Made by a program: the position numbers and the translations under genes. The notes beneath the pieces were generated by a model that saw only the letters and a program-made list of their open reading frames with translations, was not told the DNA's origin and ran no database searches. 52,412 nucleotides of DNA, taken from contig CAZJVP010000036.1 of NCBI GenBank assembly GCA_964549615.1, forward strand, positions 1 through 52,412, read 5' to 3'. Below, piece after piece: positions 1,965-24,475 of this stretch (positions are counted from its first letter, which is position 1; the number at the start of each line of letters is the position of its first letter). The stretch is from an uncultured Thermococci archaeon (GTDB taxonomy: Archaea; CAYQAE01; CAYVLA01).

Positions 1965-3056
1965 TCAGCGTCGTTGGCGCCGCAGGCCGCCCACGGCAAC
2001 GGCCACCAAGAGGATCGCGAGGATGCCGATGATGGCCCAGATGAGCTTGCCCTCCAGGATGCTGGGCTGGACCGTGAACCTGATCTCGTTGCTCTTGCCG
2101 CCCAGGTGGTTGGAATCCCCGTTCCAGCTCGCCCACACCACCCAGTCGCCCGGTTCCGGCGGTCGGAAGCTGTCCGAAAAACGGCCATCGTCGTCTGTGG
2201 CGACCGTCCTTTCCGCGCTCGTGATGCCCTGCTTAACGTAGCTCAGCGTGACGTTGGCGTCGGCGTGCGCAGGGAGCACGAAACCGTGCAGCTCAACCAT
2301 CTGTCCCTGCTGGATTTGATCTCTGGCGATCGCCAATGAGAGGTTCGAGGCCTCTCTCTGCGACTGTAGCAAGACTGGGTCCTGCTCCAGAACGGCGAAG
2401 TACTTGACGATCGTCAGGGGCCTGTATCCGTCCTTTGAGACGTTGAGCTGGATCGAGTACGAACCAGCCTGCTTTGCCGTCACGTTGCAGGGCAGGGTTA
2501 TCTGGCGCTTCGATCCGTCGGGAAGGTTGAGCCATGCACTTATGGCCGGGCCTTGGACATCGCAGTCGTAGGCAAGGTAGACCTTTTCGTTCTTGATGAA
2601 GACCGAGGCCCTTTTCGAGGCCGAAGGGTCCCTGGAAAGGATGATCTCAAAGGCCATGTCCTCCGGGGCTCCCTCGATCTGGAAGGTGGCCTCGGCTTGG
2701 CAGACGACGAACCTCCCCTCGATGAGGCTGGCTTGCACCACATACGGGCCTGAGTAGTACCTCTGATCCACGGGCAGGAGGAAGAGTTGAATGCTCTTTG
2801 ACTCGCCTCCTGCCAGGGAGAGGTCATGGCTGACCAGGGTCGGTGCCACCTTGGATCGCTGGTCCCTGAGCAGCACATCCAGCGACAGGTTGGTGGGCTG
2901 CCCCTTTGTGTTCGTGACGTGTGCGGTTACATCGATCACATCCCCTGGGCGGTAGACGGGCTGGCTCACGTTGAGGGCCAGGTCATGGGCCTGCGCAGCC
3001 GTGAGCCAGGCTGCCGCTGTGAATGCCATGGCCATGAACAGCCGGGCCGATCGCAC
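1965..3056 (-). CDS. Cell-surface Ig-like domain protein with C-terminal TM anchor
   Basis: Signal peptide, Ig-like motifs (YRPGDVIDVTAHVTN; TDDDGRFS..F.P..PGDW.V.ASWNGD), and a C-terminal TM followed by RRQRR. GTG start lies 1 nt after the upstream stop. Confidence 0.75.
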   Translation of the reverse strand: MRSARLFMAMAFTAAAWLTAAQAHDLALNVSQPVYRPGDVIDVTAHVTNTKGQPTNLSLDVLLRDQRSKVAPTLVSHDLSLAGGESKSIQLFLLPVDQRYYSGPYVVQASLIEGRFVVCQAEATFQIEGAPEDMAFEIILSRDPSASKRASVFIKNEKVYLAYDCDVQGPAISAWLNLPDGSKRQITLPCNVTAKQAGSYSIQLNVSKDGYRPLTIVKYFAVLEQDPVLLQSQREASNLSLAIARDQIQQGQMVELHGFVLPAHADANVTLSYVKQGITSAERTVATDDDGRFSDSFRPPEPGDWVVWASWNGDSNHLGGKSNEIRFTVQPSILEGKLIWAIIGILAILLVAVAVGGLRRQRR

Positions 3057-3057
3057 C

Positions 3058-6000
3058 TCACCACCACCTCGGGCAGAAAGTCGGATCCCCCAAGAGGGCA
3101 TAGAATATGTCTCCCCTCAGCGTTGTGCTGAAGTTCCAGACGTCCTCATCGTAGTCCTCGTTGCGGGCCTGAAGGTAGGCCTCGCCTATGCTCTTGCCCT
3201 CCAGGTAGACGGCCCGTAGTATGTCGTCGAACATGCGGTGCCAGTACGAGACGTCCGTTGCACCCATGTACGCCATCGCCCCCCTCCTGATGTGCTGCAC
3301 CGAGAGGACCATGCCCGGCTCGCCCAGGGTCACTTCAACGTTGTATGCGCCGGTGAGGCATGCTAGGTCGAGCACCACCACTGGCTCCAGGTAAACCTCC
3401 TGCCAGCAAAGATATCCGGAGTCGATAACCCCCTCGAAGAACCGCATGAGACCGTGGTCAACGAAGATTATCAGCCCGCAATCATCGTAGAGGGAGCGGA
3501 TGGTCATCCGGTTTCCGTCGACCTCGGCGTGTCCCGAGTAGAACCAGACGTTGTTGAACTGGCGCTCGACCTCCGGGGTCCAGTAAGTGGCCCTAGCATA
3601 GTTCTCCAGGACAGCCTCGTCTTTGGGCCCCAGTATGGTTTCCACCTGATGATCCTCCCTTACCATCACAAGCGCGTCCCTGCTTTTGTCAATGCGGTCG
3701 TAGAAGAGATCCCTCGCCACATACGCCGACACATCGGAGGCGGTCACCCCGTATATCCTTCCGGTCGCGATGTCTTGGTGGGCGAGGTTGTGCGTGCTGC
3801 CGTAGAATCTTCCGTCCACCTCCAACCACAGGGGCCCGCTATCGGCTGAGACCTCTATCCTCGCTATGCGGCGCAAGGATCGCGAGGGGATGTTGTAAAC
3901 GCATACATACCACCAGCCTTCGTCAGACCTCTCGTACCACGCCACGTTATCCCCCCATATGGACGGCAGAACCTGGTCGGCCGGCTCGCTTGTGAGCCTC
4001 TCCGGCCTGGAGGTCGCGGGGTCAAACAACCAGATGTCCCAGTTACCATTGCTGTTGTCCTGCCACACTACCCGGCCCTCGTAGATGCGGGGGTACATCT
4101 GGTCGCCGGCCCCTGCGGCAACTATGAGCTCGCTGCTGGTGATCTCGCCGTTTTCGTCCATCACGGCCATGCGGACGTCCCAGTGGCCGTTCCTGTTGTC
4201 CATGTAGACTATCTTGTTTCCCCATATGGAGGGGCGTTCCTGGTTGTAGTCGTCGCGGGTGACGTGGCGATATTGATGTGTGTTCAGATCGTACTTCATG
4301 ATGTCCGTGTGGTCTCCGAATGGCTGTTGGTAGACCACGGTTGTCCCCCATATTGCAGGCCATTCTTGGTTTTCGGGCGAGGAGGTCAGCTGCGTGGTGG
4401 TCCTGGCGAGGGCGTCGTAGGCGTATATGTCCCAATTGCCGTTTCTTGCGTCCTGCCAGACTATGACCGTGCCGTAAACAGCCGGCCTGCACGAGCCAAT
4501 CAAATACCGTCCCGTCTCGTTGGCCCCGGTGAGCTGGTAAGTCCTACCCGTCAAAAGATCCTGATACCAGATATCCCCCCAGGTGTTCTCATCCGTCCAT
4601 GCGAGTATCCGGTCCGAGCATGCCGGGTTGAACTGGACGCGCAGATTGTTTGTCACGTACTCCTCGCGGTCGCCCGACAGGGTGTTGCGCACAATGTCGA
4701 CGTCGATGTAACGGGCGCCCTGGTAGAAGATGTTGTCGCCCCAAATGGCCGGTGCGTAGGGCAGGTTGGCCCTGGCAATGGGGATGACCTCGGGCGAGGC
4801 GACGATCGTCAGGTAGCGGACCGGGCCCCCCAGCGGCAGGGACTCCATCGCCTGATCGACGAAGACGTCTATGTCGGGGTAGGAGTGAGAGGTCGTGCTG
4901 ATTATGACCTCCTTCTTGGCAGCCGCCAGGAAGGGCGCCACGAGCGAATGCTTAGCAAAGAGGTATGTCACGTTGGAGGCCTTGTCGGTCACGTAGTTGG
5001 ATCGCCGGTATGACCACAAGTCCAGTGGGTTGACCAGTATGACGCCCTTGGCGCCGGTGGCTATGCCGTAGTGCCTTCGAAGCTCATCCAACGTGAACCT
5101 CTGGAGCACCCTCGCGTTCACGGCGTCCAGGGCGCTCAGTTCGCCGGCGCTGAACTGTCCGACGAGATAGACGCTCTTGTGGTCCAGTTCACGCACGTCG
5201 TAGTGCCCCTGGAAGAGGATGGGCGCGTTCAGAAGCGAGGCATAGACCGATGCCATGAGTCCGGTGGCGTATTCATCCTGGGAGACAACGTACACATCGA
5301 TCTTGCTCCAATACTCGTTTCGCAGCTGCCTTTCCTCATCCTTGGTGAAGATGTCGTCCATGGGCATGACCCCATATCCCCCGGATTCGAGAAGCCTCGG
5401 AGATATCCCCCACCTTCCCGCAAGCGCCCTGCTGAAGCCGCTCACCTCCATGGGCGAGAGGCCGAGAATGATCATGCTGTCGCTCATGCTTGGGGCCGCT
5501 GCCCTCCATACCCTGATCTGCGTTTCGGACAGTCCCGGCCCGACCGGGGGCGGCGCGACCATCAGCCTGATGAGGTCAGCAGGCGGGGTGCCGAGGATGG
5601 TGACCCTTAAGCCAAGCCTGTTGCGGCCGTACGAGGCGTACTGCTGCAGGAAGCTGATGACGGAGTCTGCATCGAAAGCCGTCTCGTTTTCCTGGTGGTA
5701 GATCAGGACCGGGAAATTGTAGGTGGTTCCGACCTCAACGGGCTCGGTTGGGTGCATCTCCTTCCATACGGCAATCGGCACCAGGGACAAGACCGCCCTC
5801 CAGTCCAGGTCGGAGATCACGAAGACCTCCCGGTCTCTGTAGGAAGACATGTTCTTGACATTCTCCCTTCCTAGCGCCTCGACGGTGAAGCTCCTCTCCG
5901 TCGTCGTCGCGTGGTCGTCGTCAACGCTGTATGCCTCTGCATAGTACCTTACCGTGTAGCCTGCGGCCCAGGGCCCCCTGACTATGCTCAGGGTCGTCGA

Positions 6001-13782: not shown

Positions 13783-14115
13783 ATGGCCGATTCTGAAGAC
13801 GCCACTCGACCATACGAGGAAGCCAAGTGCCCAAACTGTGGCCGCGCCATCGAGGAGGAGCAGCTGTTTTGCTCCGCGGAATGCGAGCGGGCGTGGATGA
13901 AGCGGGAGCTAGCAAAGGCGGAGTTTGAAGGGATATTCTTCTGTCCGAGGTGCGGTTCGACCAAGATGACGGTCGTGCTACCTGGGCTGATCTCGACCTG
14001 GAGGTGCAAGGAATGCGGCTACCAGGGCGGGCTGGCGGTCAAGGACGGCGAGATCCGGAACGCGATCCATAGGAAGTTCGAGGAGGCACGGGGGAAGAAG
14101 AAGGGCTCGGCCTAG
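13783..14115 (+). CDS. Double zinc-ribbon protein (DUF2116-like N-terminus)
   Basis: CPNCG..I.....FCS.EC and CPRCGS...WRCKECGY. TATA-like GATATAT lies about 30 bp upstream. Confidence 0.8.
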   Translation: MADSEDATRPYEEAKCPNCGRAIEEEQLFCSAECERAWMKRELAKAEFEGIFFCPRCGSTKMTVVLPGLISTWRCKECGYQGGLAVKDGEIRNAIHRKFEEARGKKKGSA

Positions 14116-14216
14116 TGCGACTCCTCGACGGGGCAACCACTACCGGCGATTCCCATCTTTCATCTCTTGATCTTGTGCCCGTCCCCAGTCTCCATCCTCG
14201 AATGCCGGCCCCCGGG

Positions 14217-14609
14217 CTACCTTCTGATTCTGCCCTCCGCGCAGCGGGCCTTCATCCTCTCCTCGTCCAGGCAGGCAACGAAGAAGAAGAGCAACACGAG
14301 GGCCCCAGCGTAAACAGGGGTCAGATGCACCAGGTATCTCCGCCACAGAACGTACGCAATGGCGGAGAATACGGCAAGCCCCACTAGGAAGACCAACAGG
14401 AGCTGCATGGCAGTCTTCATGGTGGTCTCGGATGACTCCCTGCCGCGAGTTCTCTCCTCTTCGGACCGTTCAGGCATCCGCAGCCCCTCCTGGCGGGCCT
14501 CAAACTCGGTCACGACCGGCTTCCTCCCGATCATCAGACCAAGGAGGGTGAGCACGATGGCGACGGTCGGCACTGCGACGAGTGCAAAAATGCCGATGTC
14601 TACGGACAT
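14217..14609 (-). CDS. Small membrane protein (about 3 TM)
   Basis: Three hydrophobic segments; GGTGGAG precedes the ATG. Confidence 0.6.
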   Translation of the reverse strand: MSVDIGIFALVAVPTVAIVLTLLGLMIGRKPVVTEFEARQEGLRMPERSEEERTRGRESSETTMKTAMQLLLVFLVGLAVFSAIAYVLWRRYLVHLTPVYAGALVLLFFFVACLDEERMKARCAEGRIRR

Positions 14610-14618
14610 TCTCCACCC

Positions 14619-14899
14619 TCATGGGCAGCCAAGGTCTATGGCCAGCATCAGCCGGGTAAGACTACGACGGTGTAGAGGAGCATCCCGAACGCGACGAGCG
14701 CGAACGGGGACGCCCCGCGCAGCAGTCCCGCGCCTGCGCCGATGAGTGCGACCGCGGTGACGGACTCCGCGGCGAGATGGAAGCCCATACGAACAGGTTC
14801 GATCGTGAGCTCCGGCACCTGTCCGGCCGTGATGAAGAACGCCCACTCGGCGACCATGAGGACACCGGTCACGACCGCACGCCAGCCCCCGAACCTCAC
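14619..14899 (-). pseudogene. Probably truncated small membrane protein; first gene after attC-B
   Basis: W.FF..AGQVPEL..EP....FHLAAE..TA and GMLLYTV...PG resemble a conserved 4-TM family, but the frame stops right after PG. A short hydrophobic tail (LMLAIDLG) is in another frame. Confidence 0.5.
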
Positions 14900-14923
14900 C
14901 CCGAGACCCCCTCGCGCCGGTCA

Positions 14924-15030
14924 ACCGAACGGTCTCGTGCTGAGCGGCGCCGCTCTTCTACCTCACAGAATATCACGCCTTGCGCCGATTCGGGCCACTG
15001 CGCGGCGTCCGCTCCAGCGACGTGTTGGGC
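14924..15030 (-). mobile_element. Integron attC recombination site (attC-B)
   Basis: Minus strand reads R'' GCCCAAC, 5-nt spacer, GCTGGAGCGGACGCCGC...GCGGCGCCGCTCAGC, then R' GTTCGGT. The arms pair except for two extrahelical bases (G, A). Length 107 bp, starting 26 bp after the cassette gene's stop. Confidence 0.85.
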
Positions 15031-15814
15031 CGCCGATCATAACGATCCACTGCGCGTCACGGGCCTGATCTACGGAGTCTCAAGCCTATCCAGATGAACG
15101 CGATCGGGGCCAGTATCACTCCTGCGCCCGCGCCGATTGTGCCGAGAGCTTCAACGCGGAGGACAGTGCCCGCCACGATAAGCCAGTAGGCGATCCCCCC
15201 GCCAAAACCCACGACGGAAAGCGGACGCGGCCAACGGTTCGCCTGCAGAGCAAGGGCATTGATGACGAGAAGCCACGCTCCGATCGCGCCATGGGTGATC
15301 CATCCGTGTGGATCGAGGAGGACTAGGTACAGGTTGCCAGCCGTCGCAGCCCTGGTTGCTGCATCTCCCGTCATGTACGTTTCCGCCATGTGAGGAATGA
15401 GGGCAATCTCGCGCAGGTACTGAACCGCAGTGACAGAGTAGCCCAGCATGGCTATGGCTGTCGCCCAGCGGAGCCAGCCTTCGTGGACGGGTCGCAGGAT
15501 GCGGGGTATGGCGATGACAACAGCGAGGCCGAGGATGGCACCAATGACGTTCGCGGAGTACTCAATCATGGCATACGTTGGCACTTCGGCGAATGACTCG
15601 AGGTAGGCGGCAGGATCGCCCCATGTCTGCTGCGCTAGGGGCATGAGCAGGAACGCTACTGCGGAGATGGGAAGCAGTACACCAGAAAGGATCGCGCATG
15701 TGCCGCCCAACTTCGTCAGGCTGCTGTTGACCATGTGATTCCTCCTGTCCTTGGGCGGGACGCGACCGCTTGGCAGTCTTCCGGCAGGACGGCGACGGGT
15801 CGGCCGCGGCCCAA
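14930..15814 (-). mobile_element. Integron-type gene cassette carrying one membrane-protein gene
   Basis: Begins TTGGGC, from the R' of attC-A. Its own R'' (GCCCAAC) is the exact reverse complement of GTTGGGC. Contains a single ORF. Confidence 0.8.
15057..15734 (-). CDS. DUF4386-like multi-pass membrane protein (cassette gene)
   Basis: About six hydrophobic segments and a WPR.L...G...G motif. AGGAGG precedes ATG 15734. Confidence 0.75.
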   Translation of the reverse strand: MVNSSLTKLGGTCAILSGVLLPISAVAFLLMPLAQQTWGDPAAYLESFAEVPTYAMIEYSANVIGAILGLAVVIAIPRILRPVHEGWLRWATAIAMLGYSVTAVQYLREIALIPHMAETYMTGDAATRAATAGNLYLVLLDPHGWITHGAIGAWLLVINALALQANRWPRPLSVVGFGGGIAYWLIVAGTVLRVEALGTIGAGAGVILAPIAFIWIGLRLRRSGP

Positions 15815-15908
15815 CGGCCTGGAGCTCAGCTGCCGGGCCAGCCAAATTCGCTTTCGGATTGGCCGCTTCTCCCCTGCTGGCCCGGTCAGCTGCAACGAGT
15901 TGATCATA
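15809..15908 (-). mobile_element. Integron attC site (attC-A) with damaged R'' box
   Basis: Minus strand reads [TATGATC]AACTC-GTTGCAGCTGACCGGGCCAGC...GCTGGCCCGGCAGCTGAGC-TCCAGGCC-GTTGGGC. It has the same extrahelical G and A as attC-B, but the R'' AAC is replaced by ATC. Confidence 0.75.
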
Positions 15909-15909
15909 T

Positions 15910-16021
15910 CTTTCAATTTCCTCTCAGTGGGACTTAGGGGTCACTCGTCCATAGGGGTGAACCAGCCCCACATGTTCAGCAACCCTTTCAATTCCCCCTC
16001 AGTGGAACTTAGGGGTCACTC
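15910..16021 (-). CRISPR. Orphan CRISPR mini-array: 2 repeats, 1 spacer
   Basis: 37-bp repeats at 15985-16021 (GAGTGACCCCTAAGTTCCACTGAGGGGGAATTGAAAG) and 15910-15946 (3 mismatches), with a 38-bp spacer at 15947-15984. ATTGAAAG 3' end and an internal CCCCT/AGGGG stem. Confidence 0.75.
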
Positions 16022-16140
16022 CGCGCTTCGGAAGTGCTCTGCCTTTTATAAAGCTACTGTGAAGATCGGGAAATCGGATCACCCTCTCCTAAGGTCTTCA
16101 CGCCCTTGCGCAATGCAGCATATTCCCGGACATCCCGAAT
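16022..16140 (-). promoter_or_regulatory. Putative CRISPR leader with TATA box TTTATAAAA (16044-16052)
   Basis: Non-coding, relatively AT-rich stretch. The TATA box lies about 23-31 bp before the first repeat. Confidence 0.6.
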
Positions 16141-16147
16141 AGGCGCC

Positions 16148-16764
16148 ATGCAGAACCATCTTTTGGGATCCGGCGTCGAGGAGATCAGGGCGTACGAGCA
16201 GGAGTTCCGCTACCCCTTCTATGGCTTCCGCCACGCCTATCCTCCCAGCACCTCGGCCATATGCAGGGACTGCTGGGCATGAACGGATACGATCGCGTCA
16301 GGGGCGAGATCTTCCTCGACTGGCCTCAGTTTGAGCCCATTCGACCCAGCCCAATCGAAGCCGGAATCGAGGTGCAGGTTGAGCTCCGGGAGGGGAAGGG
16401 TGAGATGCTGGGCGTGGAGGTCAGGGCACTGAAGGGCGAGGATCAGGTCGGCTTTTGCGGCTCCATATCCTGCGGGGAGTTCTCCCGCTCACCCGAAGTC
16501 TTCACCGACTCCCTCAGCGTAAAGGATGGTTATCAGGGCCGCGGCTTGGGCAAGCACATCCTCGGCCGCTCGCTGCAGGAGCCTCACAGGATAGAGTGCC
16601 GTAATGCCGCGATCAGCAACGATTGGAACGATCACCGTGCCCTTCTCCTTCATTCCAACTTCGACTGCCATGTCGTTGACTGGGCCTACTGCCTGAGTCG
16701 GCGCTGGCGGACCCGTTGCTCAACCGGCCTAGACGGGATTGCGGCACAGCCAGACGGGGCTTGA
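16148..16764 (+). pseudogene. GNAT acetyltransferase pseudogene (frameshifted, probably 5'-truncated)
   Basis: ...FRYPFYGFRHAY changes frame at about 16241 into SQHLGHMQGLLGMNGY, consistent with a 1-bp deletion. The acetyl-CoA motif is YQGRGLGK, and the C-terminus looks degenerate. Confidence 0.7.
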
Positions 16765-18312
16765 CCATGCCGTTATGCCTTGGTATCTTAGGCGGAGATA
16801 ATAGTACATGAATGGGGACGGGTCCCTGGGAGCACCCTCGATCCACAGGTTGCCGACATCGCGGTCGTCGGTGAAGGTGTAGAGGGTATGAACGTCCCTG
16901 ATCTTGAAGCTGTGTAAGAGTTCGTTGTTGCAGATAATCTCGAGGGTTGCTGGCAGCATGCTCGTGCAGACCTCAATCCTGATCGTTCGGGCAGGCTCTT
17001 GTGCTTCGCCCACCTCCAGCGTCCCTCCCATGGGGGTTGACTCGACCCAGAAATCGAGGATCGGCCTTGTTGAGGTCGTGGCATAGCAGCGCCGCTTCAT
17101 CAACGAGTCGAAGATCGCCTGCCTGGACAGTTCACGAGCATAGACGGCGGCAAGTCCCTGGTTGACCATCGAGTTGGCCGGATGGTGGTACGGACAAGGC
17201 AGGATCGAACATGGGCTGCCCGGCATGGTGTGGTGCGTGTCGCTTGAGCCTATCACGCCGTATCTGTACCCGAGCTTGAGGGCGTCCTGCAGGTAGGCTG
17301 GAGCGTCCGACTTGCCGCCCCTTAAGTAGAAATCGTCGTGCCTTGCCTCTGAGCTTCCCCACATGGAGAATACCTCGAGGACCGGCTCACGCGTGGGGTT
17401 GTAGTAGGGCAAAGTGAAGTTCCTGTACTTGGCCGCCCTTCCCGTGTGGTGGGGTATCGTCAGGTAGGGTTTTCCCTGGCGGTCCAGCCAGTCCCAGAGG
17501 ACATCGAGGCCGACCTTGGGCGAGGTCCCCTTCATATCCTCCCTGTCAAGCCAGAAGTACCCTGCGTCCGCGTCGAGGTAATAGACGTTTATGTCCCCTC
17601 CGTGATCCTTGGAGTGAGAGGATTCGAAGCCCAGCAGGGCGACGAAGTCCCCAGGCCGGTTGTGCTCCTCCGCAAGGGCCTTGATCCTTTCCCACCTCTC
17701 CCGGTTGAGGCCCCGCAGATGGTCGGTCACCGCTGCAAAATCCAGATGCGTCACCTGCCTGGCATACCAGTAGGCGAATTCGGGTTCCTTGGCGATATCT
17801 TCATGGCACCTGCCCAGGACGGAGTGGACGTGGATGTCGCCCCAAAAGAGCCTTTCGGAGGGGTTCTCGATCACCTTGGTTGGATTGCTTCGCGGTGGCT
17901 TGCCCGGGGATCCCTCGACCTCGCCCTCGACGTAGAGGACGCCAGGCTTGGTGGAACGGAGTCCAGCGATCGTCTTGATGCCGCGGTCTGCGGGAGAGAA
18001 CTTCAGCGTACTCGGAAGCTTGAGGCAGGGCTGCGATGGGTTGAGCTTCACGATTCCCCTGAAGCCCTCATCCGGCATGCCCGAGACGTTCAGCATGGTG
18101 ATCTTGAGCCGGAAAGGCTCGTCGACCCCCACGATCGACGGGAGGGTCATGAGCAGGATTCTCGACTCTCCCGCGATCTTCTCCTTCTCCTGAGGAAAGA
18201 GATCAAGGTAGGATTTCATCGCTTCCACCGCCTTCCTGCATTCGATTGCTGGAAGCGTGATAAGGCTTTCCGCGTGCCCGATGGACCGGAGCAGAAGGCC
18301 GGTTGCCCTCAC
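16729..18312 (-). CDS. DUF3604 / CehA-McbA-type PHP-like metallohydrolase
   Basis: FWGDIHVHS, AVTDH, IPHH, EVFSMWG, GSSDTH, RRCYATT and AWSSPVW. Alternative start at ATG 18219. Confidence 0.85.
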   Translation of the reverse strand: MRATGLLLRSIGHAESLITLPAIECRKAVEAMKSYLDLFPQEKEKIAGESRILLMTLPSIVGVDEPFRLKITMLNVSGMPDEGFRGIVKLNPSQPCLKLPSTLKFSPADRGIKTIAGLRSTKPGVLYVEGEVEGSPGKPPRSNPTKVIENPSERLFWGDIHVHSVLGRCHEDIAKEPEFAYWYARQVTHLDFAAVTDHLRGLNRERWERIKALAEEHNRPGDFVALLGFESSHSKDHGGDINVYYLDADAGYFWLDREDMKGTSPKVGLDVLWDWLDRQGKPYLTIPHHTGRAAKYRNFTLPYYNPTREPVLEVFSMWGSSEARHDDFYLRGGKSDAPAYLQDALKLGYRYGVIGSSDTHHTMPGSPCSILPCPYHHPANSMVNQGLAAVYARELSRQAIFDSLMKRRCYATTSTRPILDFWVESTPMGGTLEVGEAQEPARTIRIEVCTSMLPATLEIICNNELLHSFKIRDVHTLYTFTDDRDVGNLWIEGAPRDPSPFMYYYLRLRYQGITAWSSPVWLCRNPV

Positions 18313-23071: not shown

Positions 23072-24298
23072 ATGAGGCGCGCGTGTCCATGTTGGGCGGC
23101 GCTGGTCCTGATCGTTCTGCCATGCGCCCTCGCTGCGACGGGCATTGATCCTCGCAAGGTGTCCGTGCTCTATACCGGCGACCCCTACCCAGGGATCACC
23201 CCGTACCTTTCCATGAAGGAGGACGCTTTCATCTCGGTTACGCCCGTCCAGGCGTCGTCGATGCACTACGCAGGGATCACGTCAGAAGACATAAGGAAGG
23301 CGATGCGAATCTACATGGCACGCAGCTACGACGACTACGTCAACAAGTACGACGTCATGATACTGAGCGACTCCAACAGGGGCGTCTTCACATCGGGCCA
23401 GATATTCTGGTTCAGGGACGGTGTCTTGGACCACGGGATAGGGCTCCTGATGGTGGGCGGGTATGAGAGCTTCGGAGGAGGATTCAACCATCCCAGCTGG
23501 GCAGGCTCCCCGGTTGAGGAGGTGCTTCCCGTTCTGGTACCCCAAGGCCTGGTTACCTGGGTCAGCGGTAACGTGAGGATCGAGCCCGTCAAGTACGATA
23601 ACCCCTTCATGGCCAGCCTTCCTTTCAGGCCGACCCCCGAGTACATGAGGATAGGGACGGACGGCAACTTCGTCATACAGAAGGAAGGATCCGAGCTTCT
23701 CGCCCGGTGGATATCGACCACCTACAACGATCCCCCGTGCTACGTCACCTGGGAGGTTGGCAAGGGCAGAACCTTCGCCATGATGCACGACTGGACTCCC
23801 GGGGGTGGCTACTGGATGTCTAGGTGGGACTACTACCGCGACTTCGCAGTCAACCTCATGCTCTACTTGGCGGGGCGCCAGCTTCCAACCGATTATCTCG
23901 TCGTCCACGAATACAGATCTGCCATACATTCGATATCGGTGAGCAAAGGGCTGCTGATGTCGCTCATCGATTTCGTGGACAGCTTCGGTGGGAATCCTAG
24001 GGAGATCGACAGCCAGATCATCGTGCTCAACGCGATGGTCGCGGAGTCGCAGGAGTACTACCTCGACCACCGGTTCGAGGAAGCCCTCGAGAGGGCGCAG
24101 CTCGCCATCGAGAAGGTGAAGGAGATAGAGCAACTGTCGGTGAGGATAAAGAACCAGGCCCTGCTGTGGGTTTACGTGGTGGAGTGGCTGAGCGTCACCG
24201 GCGTCAGCCTCCTTGCGGGCGTCGTCGTGTGGTCGCTGATGGTGCGGCGGAGGCTGTACAGAGAGGTAAGGGTCACGCGGCTGAAGGAAGTCATGTAG
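23072..24298 (+). CDS. Membrane-anchored class I glutamine amidotransferase-like (DUF1355-like) protein, paralog 1
   Basis: Signal peptide, YDVMILSD, GLLMVGGYESFG, EEVLPV and W.VGKGRT, then a helical stalk, TM and LMVRRRLY tail. Confidence 0.75.
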   Translation: MRRACPCWAALVLIVLPCALAATGIDPRKVSVLYTGDPYPGITPYLSMKEDAFISVTPVQASSMHYAGITSEDIRKAMRIYMARSYDDYVNKYDVMILSDSNRGVFTSGQIFWFRDGVLDHGIGLLMVGGYESFGGGFNHPSWAGSPVEEVLPVLVPQGLVTWVSGNVRIEPVKYDNPFMASLPFRPTPEYMRIGTDGNFVIQKEGSELLARWISTTYNDPPCYVTWEVGKGRTFAMMHDWTPGGGYWMSRWDYYRDFAVNLMLYLAGRQLPTDYLVVHEYRSAIHSISVSKGLLMSLIDFVDSFGGNPREIDSQIIVLNAMVAESQEYYLDHRFEEALERAQLAIEKVKEIEQLSVRIKNQALLWVYVVEWLSVTGVSLLAGVVVWSLMVRRRLYREVRVTRLKEVM

Positions 24299-24475
24299 GG
24301 CCTCTCCCTGGCCGTCGATGCTTCAACCGCTGGTGATCGATCCCATTCAAGCTGTGGACACGATTGCCGCGACGCACGGTCGGCGAAACTGGGACGCGCC
24401 AGCCTTCGAAAAACTTATGAGGTCGGAGGAGGCCCCGTTCGGAGGGAGAGCTGCCTGCAGCAAAAGGCCGCGGTC

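Follow-up and report, generated by a model that had tools for sequence, protein, structure and literature searches.

How should two imperfect palindromes, each about 100 nt long and standing on either side of a single membrane-protein gene, be understood when they are met in a genome of archaeal type? The whole stretch of DNA analysed here, 52,412 nt long and hereafter called the window, holds both palindromes and the gene at the very positions reported in an earlier note, which had read them as an integron gene cassette flanked by two attC sites. An attC site carries on its top strand an R″ box of consensus RYYYAAC at the 5′ end and an R′ box of consensus GTTRRRY at the 3′ end, and its bottom strand folds into a hairpin with two extrahelical bases. 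The integron integrase, IntI, recognises this hairpin and cuts at G|TT; the cassette is excised as a circle and re-inserts at an attI site. Our analysis leads to the conclusion that the two palindromes are canonical attC sites and that positions 14930-15814 are an integron gene cassette. The locus as a whole is very probably a fragment of a cassette array, namely a two-site CALIN, lying in the chromosome of an uncultured hot-spring archaeon.

The top strand of both attC sites is the minus strand of the window, and the bottom strand, the one that folds, is its plus strand. Site 1 (14924-15030, minus strand) is the own site of the cassette, and site 2 (15809-15905, minus strand) is the attC site of the preceding, now headless cassette; both were delimited by their match to a covariance model, R1, which is described below, together with a reading of the sequence. 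On the minus strand, the R″ and R′ boxes are GCCCAAC (15030-15024) and GTTCGGT (14930-14924) in site 1, and GATCAAC (15905-15899) and GTTGGGC (15815-15809) in site 2. Inverse core sites of the RYYYAAC/GTTRRRY type, also seen across 51 aligned sites of the same family, are present in both window sites with one departure each: the R″ box of site 1 and the R′ box of site 2 fit the consensus, while the R′ box of site 1 departs from it at position 4 and the R″ box of site 2 at position 2. After its R″ box, site 1 runs through a 5-nt spacer, 3 bp, a bulged G, 6 bp, a bulged A and a further 6 bp to a 48-nt loop, and its 3′ spacer, between the 3′ arm and GTTCGGT, is 8 nt long. Site 2 has the same bulge geometry, a longer stem and, again, a 3′ spacer of 8 nt. 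In both sites the extrahelical bases all lie on the 5′ arm of the top strand, as they do in an attC palindrome, and in the family at large the bulged G is found in 44 of the 51 sites and the bulged A in 47.

The architecture first described for the two sites therefore stands as regards the boxes, the 8-nt spacers and the extrahelical G and A, but not as regards a 5-nt spacer in site 2. In the structure-based alignment the 5′ spacer of this site is 2 nt, and no other of the 51 aligned sites has one so short. The heptamer TATGATC precedes both attC sites on the minus strand (15031-15041 and 15906-15912), and site 2 resembles site 1 minus about 10 nt between TATGATC and the AAC of the R″ box. The spacer of site 2 may be short because these nucleotides are missing.

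As had already been pointed out, GTTGGGC, the R′ box upstream of the cassette, and GCCCAAC, its own R″ box, are complementary at 7/7 positions, a relation to be expected if the unit had formerly been circular, with closure at G|TT. Counted from the TT of this upstream R′ box to the G of the R′ box at its own end, the cassette measures 885 bp (14930-15814, minus strand). It contains one intact gene (15057-15734, minus strand) for a 225-aa DUF4386 membrane protein (Pfam PF14329, E 4.2e-14). The strong ribosome-binding site attributed to this gene is indeed there, an AGGAGG at 15741-15746 on the minus strand, 6 nt before the ATG at 15734. The stop codon of the gene is at 15057 and site 1 begins at 15030 on the same strand, which is the placement expected of the attC site of a cassette. 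Among metagenome proteins, 31 further cluster representatives match it at E≤1e-10; their identity is 44-86% (63-86% for the 225-aa homologues), most have 225 aa, and most come from contigs of about 1 kb.

Read along the minus strand, the array consists of a headless cassette ending in site 2, the complete DUF4386 cassette and the start of a third cassette gene. This third gene (14648-14899, minus strand; 83 aa) begins 24 nt after site 1. It had been described in the earlier note as a truncated gene at 14899 that might be the next cassette, and truncated it is, but alignment places the cut at its 3′ end and not at its 5′ end. Full-length relatives have 115-138 aa, about 40 C-terminal residues are missing here according to the alignment, and 34 homologues are labelled PF26247. 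The named relatives of this family are bacterial (Actinomycetia, Caldilineaceae), and downstream of the gene R1 found no attC site.

Could such structures arise by chance? Folding energy is not decisive here, as that of each site, folded alone, is not clearly better than that of shuffles (z -0.9 to -2.2). Four sequence motifs are common to both sites; three are confined to them across the 3.2-Mb genome, and the fourth occurs once more. We also scanned both strands of this genome for AAC...GTT units whose 5′ arm carries two bulges. A stricter form of the scan, requiring GTT[AG], gave no match, the R′ box of site 1 having a C at this place, and the pattern was then relaxed. The relaxed scan returned seven places genome-wide, with the window sites ranking first and joint second (18 and 16 bp). 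An extra match, C81:21956-22022, was not confirmed by R1 and was treated as chance. As this structural descriptor was written after the sites had been seen, a covariance model was taken as the independent test. Rfam gave no match at its gathering scores in the whole window, and none at E≤1 over 15850-16200, a result that says little because Rfam is not known to hold an attC family.

The covariance model rests on a family search with a 16-base motif from the 5′ half of the sites, run against metagenome contigs, which returned at least 80 loci. Among the 80 loci listed, 19 satisfied strict structural criteria; some of the remaining 61 clearly represent this site too, with a weaker stem or with a part lost at the end of a contig, and the others are matches to coding sequence. 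R1 was built from 20 outside sites, these 19 and one from a Chloroflexia genome (L028, see below), with no window sequence, and serves as a stand-in for the attC model of IntegronFinder itself. The columns of the 5′ motif are fixed by the gathering pattern, but the 3′ half and the pairings are not; the 3′ half is conserved though it lay outside the search pattern, and a variable stem position covaries. R1 matches both window sites over its full length, site 1 with 62.2 bits (E 5.3e-15) and site 2 with 50.5 bits (E 9e-12), so that the covariance-model test proposed in the earlier note, performed here with a surrogate, comes out in favour of its reading. It gave no match in the window beyond 14924-15030 and 15809-15905, nothing beyond these two sites over the whole genome, and no site in the four nearest relatives, with 150 first-look candidates scored per genome. 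Together with the motif search, the whole-genome result with R1 answers the concern that the palindromes might be a dispersed REP-like repeat.

R1 was validated on textbook integrons fetched through their IntI protein. On a class 1 integron it found a site after 5/5 cassette genes, with E-values from 7e-9 to 0.007 for four of them and E=2 for the other; on a second class 1 integron it found 1/1, and beside the integrase of a cyanobacterial plasmid integron it found four sites, upstream. All of these matches are on the expected strand and the best off-target match has an E-value of 0.57. These results mark R1 as a genuine detector of attC sites. Applied to the fetched loci, it gave 77 matches at E≤0.01, including tandem same-strand arrays on metagenome contigs (seven sites in L074, eight in L114, six in L127, and four each in L096 and L062), and in the arrays of L074, L114 and L127 the longest ORF between two sites is co-oriented with them in 16 of 18 intervals. 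Across the alignment of 51 sites, pairing holds in 94.3% of cells, compared with 27-41% when the partner is slid, and 14 of 19 pairs show compensatory changes, figures that are tilted in favour of the structure because the alignment was fitted to the model.

The attC sites of class 1 integrons (L178, L179) resemble the window sites in their inverse core sites, in the two bulges on the same arm and in the variable loop; they likewise stand just 3′ of a co-oriented gene and are found by R1. However, they score 18-40 bits with this model and therefore belong to a different sequence subtype from the window sites. Unlike our locus, class 1 integrons carry resistance genes on plasmids, beside IntI1.

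What is lacking around the array is an integrase. The absence of one nearby, already noted from the window, extends to the genome, where neither a model search nor tblastn found any. No gene of this genome exceeds the cut-off of the IntI model TIGR02249: the best match (81.6 + 77 bits against 265) is a 321-aa Xer-like recombinase on contig C3 in which model positions 183-236 are unmatched, and tblastn with a true IntI returned only this gene, at 26% identity to Chloroflexia IntI. No IntI over the cut-off was found in 401 archaeal genomes, this one included. A search of the 80 listed metagenome loci, L028 and L029 found IntI in L028 only, as the remnant described below. Upstream of site 2 there is no intI or attI, and this place is taken instead by a 242-bp unique segment and a gene fragment. 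The complete set that makes a full integron, an intI with the extra domain peculiar to IntI beside an attI site and an array, is not found here. The two sites, 779 bp apart and with no intI, are the minimum for a CALIN, a term that Ghaly et al. (2022, Sci Adv, PMC9668308) apply to two or more attC sites within 4 kb of each other and with no intI in the vicinity.

Tyrosine recombinases with some likeness to the IntI model do occur in two archaeal genomes of 3.6-3.8 Mb (L009, G320:C31; L010, G300:C14). These are ORFs of 369-382 aa whose N-terminal halves reach about 128-140 bits to the model, none over the cut-off. Two of them stand in tandem on one contig, and a third, on another contig, has an in-frame TAG.

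Where does the cassette come from? In the species-representative genome collection its protein has relatives in only two genomes, both of Chloroflexia, with identities of 65% (L028) and of 83% over residues 1-142 (L029). The L028 gene stands as the first cassette after a degraded intI, on the opposite strand, and an attI-like junction, and behind it comes a site sharing boxes, spacers and bulges with those of the window (84.6 bits with R1). Of intI, 103 aa from the N-terminus and a piece of the C-terminus are left, scoring 93.6 and 63 bits with TIGR02249. L028 thus follows the classical integron order, intI first, then attI, the first cassette and its attC site. A full IntI, with 473 bits (cut-off 265) and 52% identity to IntI1, is encoded in the genome to which L029 belongs. 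The bacterial affinity suspected for the cassette is supported by this check of homologue taxonomy, which places its relatives in the genome collection in Chloroflexia and in an integron context.

The likeness between the window and the Chloroflexia loci concerns the DUF4386 gene, the attC subtype, the cassette start G|TTGGGC, common to all three, and the stretch from the ribosome-binding site to the ATG, which is also present in L028. As global identity inside versus outside the cassette is uninformative, its gap-tolerant baseline being already 44-60%, we used local BLAST instead: in the comparison of the window with L028 the similarity begins at the ribosome-binding site and ends within the attC site, and homology with both L028 and L029 is confined within the unit 14930-15814. 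The loci differ in that the platform (intI and attI) is present in the Chloroflexia integrons and absent in the window, and in that the bacterial copies of the gene are damaged, broken in L028 and truncated in L029, whereas the archaeal copy is intact. In L029 (570-960) the match to the cassette gene ends at codon 142 and is followed by a small zinc-ribbon-like ORF and then by only the 5′ half of an attC site of the same type; this cassette looks decayed or rearranged. Between the window gene and that of L029, dN/dS is 0.14 and dS 0.81, values which indicate a gene evolving under purifying selection since an old split. With a dS of 0.81 the two are therefore old relatives and not a recent donor and recipient. 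The family is associated with IntI through the degraded intI of L028 and the 473-bit IntI of the genome holding L029; as the archaeal genome has no IntI or IntI fragment, recombination at the two sites here is putative.

The direction of transfer could in principle be the opposite one, with a native archaeal cassette pool from which the Chloroflexia received the gene, or with a third party supplying both. The dS value, which makes neither side a recent donor, and the survival of an intact copy in the archaeon beside a broken and a truncated bacterial one are compatible with such a pool, and archaeal integrons do exist according to Ghaly et al. (PMC9668308). Nevertheless, no homologue of the DUF4386 protein was found in 200 other archaeal genomes, IntI stays below the cut-off in all 401 and R1 is silent in the four nearest relatives, while both relatives in the genome collection belong to Chloroflexia, one of them beside intI, and the truncated neighbour gene has bacterial named relatives. 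We therefore regard this course as unlikely. A bacterial, Chloroflexia-type origin is clearly better supported than the reverse, though not proven.

How, then, did a piece of such an array enter the archaeal chromosome? The genes flanking the region, one for a 130-aa membrane protein and the other for a DUF3604 protein, are about 138 bp apart in a genome of the same genus (G001:C22) and about 2120 bp apart here, and the segment at about 14622-16740, some 2.1 kb with approximate ends and absent from that genome, is therefore an insertion. Besides the array it contains a fragment of a GNAT-like gene (16148-16703, plus strand), which by comparison with the full-length gene of G001 covers residues 109-298 of 311 with a frameshift; this genome has no other copy. 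No G|TT site coincides with either end of the insertion, and inspection by eye of the break with the GNAT-like fragment (about 16147) showed no G|TT secondary-site junction there. In G001 the full-length GNAT-like gene lies elsewhere, adjoining a tyrosine-recombinase gene and a small membrane-protein gene (L006).

These features are consistent with a history in which the cassettes would have been assembled by IntI in a bacterial, Chloroflexia-like cassette pool, and a piece of the array would have reached the archaeon as DNA. Since the fragment is cut off at both ends, and in neither case at G|TT, the recombination that fixed it would not have used the attC sites. The cassette would now be immobile unless an integrase were supplied from outside, since the genome has no IntI of its own. 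A livelier scenario, in which attC cassettes are taken up and perhaps still rearranged in this IntI-less archaeon by the resident Xer-like recombinase, or by a Chloroflexia integrase acting in trans, seems to us very doubtful; if it were true, the truncated array would be a working gene-capture spot and not a fossil.

An inserted array fragment presupposes that the bacterial-looking DNA really belongs to the archaeon. The archaeal character ascribed to the genome is confirmed by an archaeal SRP RNA (186 bits, in a search where only the four archaeal controls pass the cut-off) and by pieces of archaeal SSU rRNA. Both flanks of the locus are syntenic in order and orientation with one contig each of the same-genus genome G001 and of a same-family genome, G002. 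An assembly chimera or contamination, that is, bacterial DNA misjoined to or misbinned with an archaeal genome, might be feared of a metagenome bin with an estimated contamination of 2.81%, yet this synteny on both sides, the lineage-specific GNAT-like fragment lying between the array and the right flank, and a multi-copy family typical of the lineage on the same contig all speak against it. Moreover, the Logan assembly of the only public run with this stretch, a hot-springs metagenome, crosses 13800-17400 in a single contig with no differences; this separate assembly is not independent because the run may be the window's own source. An artefact of this kind, which the earlier note had named as a danger to its reading, is on this evidence highly improbable. 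Finally, the idea that the palindromes are some other hairpin element (REP-like repeats, terminators, or the ends of an IS200/IS605-type single-strand transposon), to which two co-oriented hairpins around a gene, unremarkable folding energies and a genome devoid of integrase might lend themselves, is already largely refuted and retains next to no credit, as the sites are not dispersed in the genome, R1 also detects the attC sites of textbook class 1 integrons, members of the family are strung in cassette arrays, one of them lies beside intI in L028, and inverse core sites with G|TT boundaries are specific to integrons.

The earlier note had presented archaeal integrons as rarely reported. Archaeal cases do exist, and the rarity has to be set against 75 of 6718 archaeal genomes in which integrons were already reported by Ghaly et al. 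(PMC9668308), most of them as CALINs. According to that study the attC types of archaea overlap with those of bacteria, one cassette from an archaeon has 92% identity to a bacterial cassette, and archaeal attC sites were recombined by IntI1 in experiments. The locus described here resembles those CALINs in that two or more attC sites lie within 4 kb of one another, without intI, in an archaeal genome from a metagenome, and in combining a cassette-borne membrane protein, attC types common to bacteria and cross-domain homology. It differs from them in that its array is a fragment, truncated at both ends and lodged in an insertion that is absent from a congeneric genome. Both archaeal CALINs and the sharing of cassettes across domains were published in 2022 (PMC9668308), and the window adds a case; the picture drawn there is unchanged and gains a well-documented example. 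This example is a natural case of an integron cassette common to Bacteria and Archaea: gene, cassette start and attC subtype agree between a hot-spring archaeon and a Chloroflexia locus beside intI. It also illustrates one route by which cassettes could settle in archaea, a broken piece of an array being fixed without an integrase, and R1, as a model of this attC subtype, could help to trace the cassette pool.

Several features of the surroundings deserve mention. The 242-bp segment upstream of site 2 (15906-16147) contains two 37-nt direct repeats, at 15909-15945 and 15984-16020, with four differences and a 75-nt period, a spacing that resembles a CRISPR mini-array. Neither the segment nor its repeats resembled any other part of the genome or any of the fetched loci, and neither gave an Rfam match. 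Within it, at 16045-16052, lies the self-complementary TTTATAAA, about 310 nt away from the cassette gene on its upstream side (minus strand); to the eye it is like an archaeal TATA box and could drive transcription either way. In the same-family genome G002 the intergenic spot that holds the insertion here is occupied by two unrelated ORFs of 292 and 473 aa (L054; G002:C2, about 2266-4659), so that a variable region of the family may lie here. Further along the window, the 3′ part (about 23100-24300) of a 445-aa ORF at 22961-24298 matches dozens of contigs in each of the three genomes of the same family.
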